A stretch of 31,376 nucleotides of DNA from a virus, in UHGV virus genome UHGV-0241516; one strand, given 5' to 3'. Under the pieces are notes generated by a model that was not told the origin of the DNA, ran no database searches, and saw only the letters and a program-made list of their open reading frames with translations. The position numbers and the translations under genes were made by a program. The stretch's first letter is position 1. Each line of letters begins with the position of its first letter. Below are positions 1 to 24,164 of this stretch, in pieces.

Positions 1-136
1 AGTTGTGGTATTTTCAGGGTAATCACCCGGAGCTGTGATTTCTTTTGACTCTCCCGTTTTGGTGCTATAGACGATTTCACCGCGATGGTCTGGCACATAT
101 TCCCATGAGTTAAAATTTGCAGAACGACAGATAGCA
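1..136. repeat. Copy A of a 136-bp perfect direct repeat (identical to 595-730); truncated by the window edge
   Basis: Read directly: 1-136 is base-for-base identical to 595-730, and identity stops at 137/731. On the minus strand copy A keeps the tfa reading frame but has an in-frame TAA at plus 158-160 just upstream and no ATG. Confidence 0.9.
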
Positions 137-219
137 GCAGGCAGAAACAACCCGCCTTAACGCTGTGCTGGATTACATTGACGCGGTGACGGCAACAGAT
201 ACCAGCACCGCGCCGGATG

Positions 220-912
220 TCATCTGGCCTGAACTGCCGGAGGCGTAGGCCATTCAATATCTGGCGCCCCGGAAGTATCGACCAGTTCCAGTGCGTCCAG
301 ATAATCCAGCCACGAATTATATTGTGCCAGTTCCTCGCCTTTCAGACGACCAATAGCGGCTTTACCGGGCCATTGTTTACTGTTCATGTATTCGTTGGCC
401 TGGTTAATCAATAATTGCCTCTCTGATTCGGCCTGTTCAATAAGTTCCTCAATCAGACTGATGGAGGCCATTGCAGTATCAATCAGTGACTGGCGCTGTG
501 CTTCTGCCGTGTCTACTGCGACGCTATGCTGTGCCTCAGTATCGGTCACCCATTTCTCACCATCCCATTTATCGTATGGTGTTAACGGGGCGATAGTTGT
601 GGTATTTTCAGGGTAATCACCCGGAGCTGTGATTTCTTTTGACTCTCCCGTTTTGGTGCTATAGACGATTTCACCGCGATGGTCTGGCACATATTCCCAT
701 GAGTTAAAATTTGCAGAACGACAGATAGCATAACCCACCTTATATGTGCCAGGAGCATCTAAACAGGAATATGCGGGGATACCGACACCCACAGCAAGAT
801 ATTCAATTGATGCAGAAATATACTCCCGTGTCTCACTGTCATAGTTATAAACGGTAATCTCTCCTGCCTTTGTGGCAATAAATTTATTATTTAAGATGGC
901 GTTATACATCAT
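220..912 (-). CDS. tfa: Tail fibre assembly protein (Tfa chaperone)
   Basis: 230 aa. C-terminal half (…[13 protein letters not shown]…[18 protein letters not shown]) resembles lambda Tfa-family chaperones as recalled. Sits directly downstream of the tail fibre gene. Stop TGA at 220-222. Confidence 0.8.
595..730. repeat. Copy B of the 136-bp direct repeat, internal to tfa (codons ~62-106)
   Basis: Identical to 1-136 (see copy A). Confidence 0.9.
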
Positions 913-1736
913 GCAGCCCTCACAATGTAATTAAATGAAATATTACGTGGGCGTGTCTCTGCTGCACCGACAATACTGGTGCTCAACCCCGTTGCCGTTC
1001 GTTTGTTATTTTTATTTCCTTCAATCAGACAGTTGTAATCATCATTACCAATTAACGAATTGGTGGCATCAATACTGTCCGGGGACAAGGCATTAGTAGT
1101 GGAACTTAAAGTCAGCATCTCGTCTGAACTTGGAAGATTTTTTAATGGTGTTTCATTGCGTGAAATACCCGCGTAAAAAAAGGACTCATGCCTGTGAGCT
1201 TCAAAAGAGTCATCCTGAAGACTTAGCAAGGCTCGCCCCGCATCCACTCCACGTCCATCATCCCAGCCACGAATAAATTCACCGCGTAAATCAGGCAATT
1301 TATTGGTCGGGTAAGCCTTTGCCAGTTCCGGGTATTCTTCAGCAGAAAAAGCCGCACCATTGCATTTCAGCCAGCCTGTTGGCGGAGTGGCTGAAGGCCA
1401 CGGAACAGGCACCCCAACCGGTAATGCAGAGCCTTCTCCCAAACCAAGGTTTTCGAGAGCCGTTTTCACCGTGCCATCCGATTTGATATCGCCAAACGGA
1501 TTCTTGCGGCTTAACAGCAGCGCACGAAGCGCGGTAAGCAACTGGTCGTGCCGCGCCTTCTCCAGGCTGGCACCGGATGCCTCCACCACGCTGCAGAGTT
1601 CTTCCTGCAACATATCAAAGTAGTCATCATCCAGATCGGTGGCAGGCGTGCCAGTCTGGGGGTTACCACGGGTAAAACCGTTCTTACCCGCGCCGAACTT
1701 ATCCTTCTGCGCGGTTTTCGTGTCTATACGATGCAT
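909..1736 (-). CDS. Tail fibre protein with phage tail-collar domain
   Basis: 275 aa. Tail-collar-like motif ([32 protein letters not shown]…[12 protein letters not shown]) and typical fibre C-terminus ([16 protein letters not shown]). ATG at 1736-1734. Lies just before tfa. Confidence 0.8.
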
Positions 1737-23144: not shown

Positions 23145-24164
23145 TTGGATAAGTTTGATGAGATTCATGTAGACATTGAATCTGAGCAGCAAGCCTTCGA
23201 TTTGCTTGAAAGCTATCTTGATGGTTATGGTTTACCTGACAGTTTAAGTTTCAACGGATGGCCAAACCTTACCATCAGATTAACCGGTGAAAAATTCAAC
23301 AGATCGCTAACACCTTCAGTTATGAAGGGATTTGTTGAAATGCAAGCTCAAATCAACAAATCATATGCCCTTGCCAAGTACGGTGTCCCTGACGTCCGCA
23401 AACTGACCAAAGAAGAACTTGATGCCCTAGAAATAGAAGTTACGGTAGAACAGGGTTCTTCAATAGTAGAAATCAACATTGATGGCTTTTTAACCAAACT
23501 CACACAGGAACTTGTTGGTAAAATGAACGCAACTGAGATCATGTTTACTGTTCTCGGCGCAGCAGTCATCTGGGGCGGAGTAACAGTATTTAAACGGTTC
23601 TTGGACAACCGTAAAGATATTCGCCTTGCAGAAATTGCTAAGGATGGAGAGAAAGAACATCTCCGGACTATGCAGATCATGAGCGAGCAAGAAACTAAAC
23701 GCCTGCGGGTTATTTCAGAAATGATTGCGGAAAAACCACTTCTCGATAACATGGACCGTATGTCGTATGACGCTAAAACCCAAATGGTCAAATCCTTTGT
23801 GCGTTCAGATAACGCTCAAATTGATGGCGTTACTATTGATTCTGAAATGGCGAAAGAGTTGGTTACGAATGCTCGTAGACGTTCATCAGAAATGAGGATT
23901 GATGGTATTTACCGAATTGAAGAAGTCAATAATACTGACCCAGAGAGTTTCAAAGTTAAGGTCCGACGCGTAGATACCGACCAACGTCTAACCTGCGTAG
24001 TTCAGGATGTTTTCCTTGATGAATCCGGAAACAAAGAAGCATTGCAGCGAGCTGAGTGGGAAAGAAAGCCTGTACATTTGAGCATTAACGCAAAACACGT
24101 CGATGGTGACATTAAGTCAGCAGTAATTCTCTATGTTCGAGATGTGGAACAAAAGCCCGAGTAA
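23145..24164 (+). CDS. Moron: 339-aa protein of unknown function with a central predicted TM helix, opposite strand to the prophage
   Basis: TTG start at 23145 with GAGGA 7 nt upstream; no in-frame ATG upstream after the stop at 23127-23129. Hydrophobic IMFTVLGAAVIWGGVTVF mid-protein. Lower GC than flanks. Ends 14 bp from the convergent Q stop. Confidence 0.7.
   Translation: MDKFDEIHVDIESEQQAFDLLESYLDGYGLPDSLSFNGWPNLTIRLTGEKFNRSLTPSVMKGFVEMQAQINKSYALAKYGVPDVRKLTKEELDALEIEVTVEQGSSIVEINIDGFLTKLTQELVGKMNATEIMFTVLGAAVIWGGVTVFKRFLDNRKDIRLAEIAKDGEKEHLRTMQIMSEQETKRLRVISEMIAEKPLLDNMDRMSYDAKTQMVKSFVRSDNAQIDGVTIDSEMAKELVTNARRRSSEMRIDGIYRIEEVNNTDPESFKVKVRRVDTDQRLTCVVQDVFLDESGNKEALQRAEWERKPVHLSINAKHVDGDIKSAVILYVRDVEQKPE

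Follow-up and report, generated by a model that had tools for sequence, protein, structure and literature searches.

A perfect 136-nt repeat beside a prophage tail-fibre assembly gene is most likely part of a chimeric contig end

Introduction

The left end of UHGV virus genome UHGV-0241516 carries part of a tail-fibre assembly gene (tfa) twice, in direct orientation and without a single mismatch. The question raised by this locus is whether the repeat is a working genetic feature of the phage or a product of the amplification or assembly of its DNA. The original prediction, made from the letters alone, described an internal tfa segment duplicated downstream of the gene, and offered a recent duplication or recombination, or the edge of a second tfa cassette, as its origin. 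Here the whole stretch of 31,376 nt (the window) was compared with reference prophages. The observation itself was confirmed, and its interpretation was supported in part.

The source prophage

On sequence grounds, the window is a prophage of Escherichia coli of the SfV/e14 type with a Mu-like baseplate. Its minus strand encodes baseplate genes of the gp44-48 type and a YmfQ/gp48 gene, after which come a collar-domain fibre of 275 aa and then tfa. The complete genomes of E. coli S163-2 and TUM9754 were 100% identical to window positions 8000-31376, and TUM9754 contained window positions 452-31376 (30,925 bp) as an exact substring with 0 mismatches. No SNP was found over 30.9 kb in comparison with isolates from Japan and China. 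The canonical sequence was taken from TUM9754 (NZ_CP128939.1, about 3643700-3644700). Locus coordinates given below as L016 are those of the TUM9754 fibre region, and L003 and L016 denote one locus.

Both ends of the window lie inside genes and not at prophage boundaries, which is the typical look of contig ends. In a repeat-boundary test of the right end, the following 800 bp were found to be single-copy in both TUM9754 and S163-2. A circular molecule or a terminal-repeat artefact was considered and rejected. The end of the window does not run into its start, and TUM9754 continues with ATGAGTGG...

Two further regions of the prophage are recorded here. A 339-aa ORF on the plus strand (window 23145-24164) is present in TUM9754 as WP_000357056.1, annotated as a hypothetical protein. 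It is flanked by the Q antiterminator and a DNA methyltransferase, runs opposite to its neighbours and occupies a typical moron position. No Pfam family scored above the cut-off for this protein (weak FNIII-A_GpJ, 18.6 bits), and no PADLOC match was obtained. Outside the window, just past pinE at the end of the prophage, TUM9754 3638506-3641259 encodes a 917-aa TrlF-family AAA-like ATPase and two small hypothetical genes. This region may be a defence or accessory cargo island.

The invertible tail-fibre locus

Two features of the window define the fibre locus:

909-1736, minus strand: tail fibre gene, 275 aa, with collar domain PF07484; identical to WP_054446573.1 of TUM9754
1434-1459, inside the fibre gene: crossover site of the serine invertase Pin, TTCTCCCAAACCAAGGTTTTCGAGAG; the only match in the window and the right-hand boundary of the invertible segment

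The left end of the window can be placed inside a Pin-invertible tail-fibre segment of the class of e14 P, Mu G and P1 C, and every testable defining feature of that class was found in the surrounding locus. The canonical order in TUM9754, S163-2 and FORC_081 is the constant fibre part, the invertible segment with tip 1, tfa1 (147 aa), the convergent tfaE (200 aa) and tip 2, and then pinE. Convergent tfaE (200 aa) and tfa1 (142-147 aa) genes were present in every reference examined. The 275-aa fibre gene consists of the constant N-terminal part and the currently joined variable tip, which is swapped by the invertible segment. The inverted partner of the crossover site is located at L016 709-734, beside pinE and about 480 bp left of the window start, and differs at 5 positions. 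In TUM9754 the pinE gene itself (184 aa, Resolvase and HTH_7) is found outside the window, about 1 kb to the left of window position 1. It was also found in S163-2, in FORC_081 and in nine of the ten contigs with an identical fibre, the exception being L010, in which none was called.

The alignments of FORC_081 to the window switch strand at the Pin site, with positions 1433-1452 common to both alignments. The window represents the TUM9754 state, in which the 275-aa collar-type fibre is expressed, and S163-2 and FORC_081 represent the other state. TUM9754 and these two prophages are identical over more than 23 kb and differ only in the orientation of the fibre segment, which shows directly that this lineage has active Pin switching. 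The assumption of an inversion-type fibre locus in the original prediction was thus borne out by the site at 1434-1459, by pinE about 1 kb to the left in identical genomes and by the occurrence of both orientations. Its remark that a direct repeat is foreign to such loci also holds.

Decay and assembly irregularities were encountered in related segments. In an otherwise identical fibre locus, the second tfa is disrupted by an insertion of 768 bp that has an 8-bp target duplication (L013 5654-6421, CP029687.1), and the size and target duplication of this insertion would fit IS1. In a related prophage of APEC O78 (NC_020163.1, 1003115-1003710) the second tfa is annotated as two pseudogene fragments 62 bp apart, one without the N-terminus and one without the C-terminus, another case of decay in the "off" cassette. 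The PLSDB entry NZ_CP148526.1 (L017, 1827 bp), a circular, non-mobilizable "plasmid", consists only of a fibre tip, a tfa, a convergent tfa and a second fibre tip. It represents an invertible P-type segment deposited as a replicon, and is probably a by-product of assembly due to the flanking inverted crossover sites. Three further entries of 1.8-1.9 kb (NZ_CP148540.1, NZ_CP148554.1 and NZ_CP148396.1) matched the same tfa/fibre query, and a stand-alone 1.9-kb contig likewise consists of the invertible segment.

The repeat

A repeat search returned 1-136 and 595-730 as a pair of 136-nt copies, 100% identical and 594 nt apart from start to start, exactly as originally described. A repeat of this length and identity in 31 kb cannot have arisen by chance. 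The second copy (copy B) spans tfaE codons 61 (third base only) to 106, in agreement with the predicted residues 62-106. The first copy (copy A) lies 83 bp past the tfa stop and is in the same frame, 594 being a multiple of 3. It has no start codon, and an in-frame TAA at 159-157 lies between the tfa stop and copy A; all of these points had been stated correctly. The right edges of the repeat are sharp (G at position 137, T at position 731), and on the left copy A is bounded only by the start of the window.

The suggestion that copy A forms the border of another tfa cassette, in a shufflon-like or Min-like multi-cassette locus continuing to the left, was examined against the reference loci. 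Cassettes are indeed swapped at this locus, and in the reference genomes a second one is found to the left. That cassette is, however, convergent (plus strand) and encodes a different tfa of 147 aa, which the canonical layout would place at the present left end of the window, while copy A has the minus-strand sense. In addition, copy A begins in the middle of the N-terminal domain, at codon 61/62, and is 100% identical to the neighbouring gene. No crossover site was found near copy A, the best match within positions 1-1000 having 10 mismatches in 26, and each of 13 related loci (L001, L003/L016, L006-L015 and L114) has exactly two cassettes. This explanation is largely refuted and retains a very small probability. 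The zero divergence between the copies had been read as the mark of a recent duplication or recombination, or as the edge of a second tfa cassette. It does point to a very recent event or an artefact, and the cassette edge is not supported.

Composition of the left end

The window was compared with the TUM9754 locus L016 by a walk of maximal exact matches. The left end was found to be composed of the following parts:

1-136, minus strand: copy A, an orphan tfaE fragment from the third base of codon 61 to codon 106, truncated on its left side at window position 1
130-143: junction J1 (between 136 and 137), from L016 1917 to the reverse complement of L016 1605; inversion-type, points 312 nt apart, 0 nt microhomology
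137-451, gene ends on both strands: inverted block of 315 bp, an exact reverse-complement match to L016 1291-1605
445-458: junction J2 (between 451 and 452), from the reverse complement of L016 1291 to L016 1639; inversion-type, points 348 nt apart, 1 nt microhomology
452-730, minus strand: canonical tfaE stretch of 279 nt, colinear and identical with TUM9754, in which 595-730 is copy B
220-912, minus strand: hybrid tail-fibre-assembly ORF of 230 aa (229 aa from the second Met), with the stop TGA at 222-220

The map contains three pieces and nothing else. Positions 1-136 correspond to L016 1782-1917 in forward direction, a stretch that occurs once in the TUM9754 locus, positions 137-451 to L016 1291-1605 in reverse complement, and position 452 onward to L016 1639 onward. 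The blocks, of 136, 315 and 30,925 nt, are all perfect, and the whole anomaly is confined to the first 451 bases. The left end is therefore a mosaic of three blocks from one otherwise canonical locus of convergent tfaE and tfa1. The plus strand of the inverted block carries the 3' end of tfaE, residues 165-200 and the stop (137-248), and its minus strand carries the 3' part of tfa1, residues 72-147 and the stop (451-220). The orientation of the block relative to its flanks is opposite to that in TUM9754, in ten draft or complete genomes with an identical fibre and in one IMG/VR contig. The 33 bp of L016 1606-1638, coding for TfaE residues 154-164 (QLKLQAGRKLT), are missing from the window.

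The two joins amount to a double U-turn, by which L016 1639-1917 (279 nt) is copied twice, and this produces the direct repeat, 136 nt of which lie in the window. A repeat of up to 279 nt, corresponding to window 452-730, is thus predicted by the block map, and only 136 nt are seen twice. A simple direct duplication failed as an explanation, with two novel junctions present and the intervening 315 bp inverted and not colinear. The duplicated tfa segment of the original prediction accounts for only one third of the anomaly, which also includes the inversion of 315 bp, the loss of 33 bp and the junction at 451/452. The convergent 3' end of tfaE at 137-248, the inversion of 137-451 and the fusion nature of the 230-aa ORF had been missed.

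The block map also bears on the possibility that Pin itself made the internal inversion at secondary (quasi) crossover sites. Invertases of the Din family use secondary sites at low frequency, and pinE adjoins the segment in the reference genomes. Exchange by serine invertases is conservative and reciprocal and takes place at a shared 2-bp core. The change observed here is, in contrast, non-conservative, with 33 bp lost and at least 136 nt duplicated. Furthermore, no single inversion can have J1 and J2 as its ends, since J2 implies a segment of 1291-1638 and J1 a segment of 1606-1917. No Pin-like site was found near either junction within positions 1-1000, where the best match was that with 10 of 26 positions mismatched, and the shared core is 0-1 nt. 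A Pin product is refuted by the non-conservative map and is regarded as extremely improbable.

Another candidate was an exchange, by homologous recombination or gene conversion, between tfa paralogues carried by different prophages of one genome. The tfa genes are known mosaics, and tfa-like DNA was found to be multi-copy in E. coli, with 2 places per genome as the median and 14 as the maximum. All blocks of the window are, however, 100% identical to one locus, compared with 90-95% for the paralogues, and the junctions are at non-homologous positions without shared sequence. Recombination between paralogues is refuted by the exact block map, and its likelihood is considered negligible. Even when combined, the second-cassette, invertase and paralogue explanations carry only a slight probability.

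The hybrid tfa open reading frame

The 230-aa ORF, which had been taken as the reference tfa gene, proved to be a junction product itself. It consists of TfaE 1-153 fused in frame to Tfa1 72-147. The fusion point is at non-homologous positions, such that a TfaE helix is followed by its Tfa1 counterpart and the central Caudo_TAP helix is partly duplicated. Pfam PF02413 (Caudo_TAP) matched the ORF with an E-value of 1.5e-36, in two stretches. Assembly proteins of the tfaE type presumably consist of Caudo_TAP_N followed by a single Caudo_TAP, with a total of about 200 aa. The homologues listed were 179-205 aa long, compared with 230 aa for the hybrid, with the exception of one protein of 229 aa (P0001), described below. 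When the fusion protein was used in a homology search, none of the homologues shared its architecture, and an exact look-up among 153 billion gene positions had no record of either the 230-aa or the 229-aa product. The architecture of the hybrid appears unnatural, and natural tfa mosaics do not look like this.

Search for the arrangement in other genomes

The junctions were searched for in several collections. 30-mers across J1 and J2 were absent from IMG/VR, from 185,579 species-representative genomes (one each) and from the JGI metagenomes. None of 5,426 complete E. coli genomes spanned J1 or J2 when searched with 120-bp queries, and nothing comparable to the J1/J2 arrangement was found in phage and plasmid collections. 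No second case of the doubled repeat was detected in viral contigs with 35-37-mers from the right end and from within the repeat. The 275-aa fibre was followed by a 200-aa tfa in all ten other contigs carrying it. All ten had the canonical 200-aa tfa, the convergent tfa of 142-147 aa (interrupted in L013) and the alternative tip. No internal repeat was found in these contigs, in TUM9754, S163-2 and FORC_081 or in one IMG/VR contig with a related fibre allele, and the layout was canonical in each.

A different alteration was observed in another draft genome (GCA_003686495.1, contig RDDA01000086.1, L018 609-782). Its homologous tfaE contains a perfect 87-bp head-to-tail duplication, by which 29 aa occur twice in a protein of 229 aa (P0001). 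The duplication shows no microhomology, and its start breakpoint is 1 nt from the J1 breakpoint in tfaE, at codon 61/62. It was absent from the 5,426 complete E. coli genomes. The proximity of the two breakpoints may be due to chance (a post hoc estimate of roughly 4%) or may point to a fragile spot. With such neighbouring breakpoints in unrelated genomes, and if the rearrangement in the window is heritable, tfaE codon 61/62 might be a breakage hotspot.

Origin of the repeat

The repeat is most likely part of a chimeric contig end, formed by amplification or assembly, and not a working genetic feature (probability about 0.55). Followed from its left end, the sequence proceeds through tfaE as far as L016 1917, turns onto the other strand 312 nt back and is read in reverse for 315 nt. 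After a second turn 348 nt back, the forward direction resumes at L016 1639. Such a double U-turn must copy 279 nt again, and it loses 33 bp and fuses TfaE(1-153) to Tfa1(72-147). The molecule itself would most likely be a non-heritable chimera that survived at the contig end. It could be due to a strand-displacing or otherwise strand-switching polymerase during sample amplification, or to the handling by an assembler of a fibre region that is difficult to reconstruct. The real locus would then be expected to resemble that of TUM9754, with an intact 200-aa tfaE and a convergent 147-aa tfa1, followed by the alternative tip and pinE. An assembly artefact, which the original prediction had named as the case that would refute it, has thereby become part of the leading explanation.

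Several observations argue for a chimera. The blocks are perfect and nothing except the joins differs from the canonical sequence. The anomaly stays within the terminal 451 bases of a window that ends inside genes. The junctions and the fusion protein were found nowhere else in the collections searched, and the related loci examined are all canonical. The non-homologous fusion duplicates part of the Caudo_TAP domain. Segments of this kind are seen to disturb assembly, as the 1.8-1.9 kb "plasmids" in PLSDB and the stand-alone 1.9-kb contig indicate. Finally, each of the two joins is of the inverted type and links points close to each other (312 and 348 nt apart), as in the chimeras formed by phi29 polymerase in multiple displacement amplification (MDA). 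More than 85% of such chimeras are inverted with an intervening deletion (Lasken & Stockwell 2007, PMC1855051). The joined parts come from neighbouring chromosomal positions, with separations that peak at 250-300 nt, and chimeras of several parts are also described (Tu et al. 2015, PMC4595205). Complementarity of 2-21 nt is present at more than 70% of the junctions and is a majority feature, not an obligatory one (PMC1855051, PMC4595205).

Other observations count against a chimera and in favour of a very recent rearrangement in vivo, private to this phage or strain, which is possible although unlikely. Such a rearrangement could have taken two forms. In the first, two template switches at a replication fork would have given the layout of a tandem inversion duplication, ...tfa1-S2-S3-S4-R, then rc(S2), then S4-R-rest of tfaE, where S2 is the inverted 315-bp block, S3 the missing 33 bp, R the 136-nt repeat and S4+R window 452-730. 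In the second, a 348-bp inversion would have swapped the 3' ends of the convergent tfa genes and would have been followed by a tandem duplication of 594 bp. Both forms would create a new in-frame hybrid chaperone gene beside the expressed fibre. The copies visible in the window are in the order R, inverted block, S4+R. The inverted block lies outside the duplicated stretch, and the left copy is incomplete at the start of the window. As far as it is visible, this direct-inverted-direct order, together with two inversion-type joins, fits a double U-turn.

To our knowledge, k-mer assemblers cannot invent junctions, so J1 and J2 must both have been present in reads. For two joins to lie on one molecule, either a chimera was amplified or a real subpopulation carried them. 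MDA is not used for most E. coli isolates that are sequenced, and J1 and J2 do not show the short complementarity usual in MDA chimeras. The hybrid is in frame, for which the chance is 1 in 3, and it keeps a complete C-terminal Caudo_TAP region. Genuine direct repeats of 279 bp and inverted repeats of 315 bp would also break a short-read assembly at this point and would explain why the contig stops here; the terminal position therefore discriminates only weakly. The locus is moreover one that gathers private changes, such as the 87-bp duplication in P0001 and the IS1-sized insertion in another genome.

A rearrangement in vivo is opposed by the fact that it was seen nowhere else in the collections searched. 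A microhomology of 0-1 nt is atypical of template switching in E. coli, a species that, as far as we know, is without end-joining. DNA folding detected no hairpins or quasi-palindromes at any of the four canonical breakpoints (z-scores +0.73, +0.37, -0.41 and +1.04). The rearrangement would likely carry a fitness cost, since a helix is duplicated and the only intact tfaE beside its fibre is lost. With 0 SNPs in 30.9 kb relative to the isolates from Japan and China, the event would also have to be extremely recent. That a heritable double template switch gave, in one step, a hybrid chaperone (N-terminal 153 aa of TfaE and C-terminal 76 aa of Tfa1) together with unstable direct and inverted repeats is considered doubtful.

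The two explanations have different consequences. If the contig end is chimeric, the perfect repeat and the plausible 230-aa "tfa" at the contig edge both come from one scrambled molecule. The 230-aa ORF would then be unfit for protein databases as a new chaperone variant, and inference of host range should rest on the canonical pair of tfaE and tfa1. If the rearrangement is real, it would be an invertase-independent route to diversify invertible fibre modules, and a small, clean case of template switching that builds a hybrid fibre chaperone, of modest value for the study of phage host-range evolution. Even then it would not be a new kind of system.

Comparison with known systems

The chimeric contig end favoured here resembles phi29/MDA chimeras in several respects. 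The joins are inverted, their distances of 312 and 348 nt are near the peak of 250-300 nt, the molecule is multi-part and there is an intervening deletion. It is unlike most phi29/MDA junctions, with their 2-21 nt of complementarity, in that J1 has 0 nt and J2 has 1 nt.

Tandem inversion duplications (TIDs) of Salmonella have reportedly been worked out in the Roth laboratory. They start at short quasi-palindromes or at microhomology. The window is like such duplications and like U-turn rearrangements in vivo in the visible part of its direct-inverted-direct order, the left copy being cut off, and in its short-range inversion-type joins. It is unlike the tandem inversion duplications in that its switch points show no quasi-palindromes and no microhomology beyond 0-1 nt. 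U-turn inversions in organelles belong to the same group of template-switch rearrangements (PMC4417113). In microhomology the repeat departs from both MDA chimeras and tandem inversion duplications, and in orientation and distance it agrees with both.

The duplication in P0001 and the anomaly in the window are both private changes in the same gene family, with neighbouring breakpoints, and the former is perfect and microhomology-free. It differs in being a simple tandem duplication within the gene, away from a contig end, in which neither an inverted block nor a fusion of genes is present.

The repeat and the 315-bp inversion are unlike the inversions of e14 P, Mu G and P1 C, as they lie off the crossover sites and are non-conservative. 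The surrounding locus is of the same kind as these systems, with a constant part and two tips, a convergent pair of tfa genes, a 26-bp site, pinE and both orientations.
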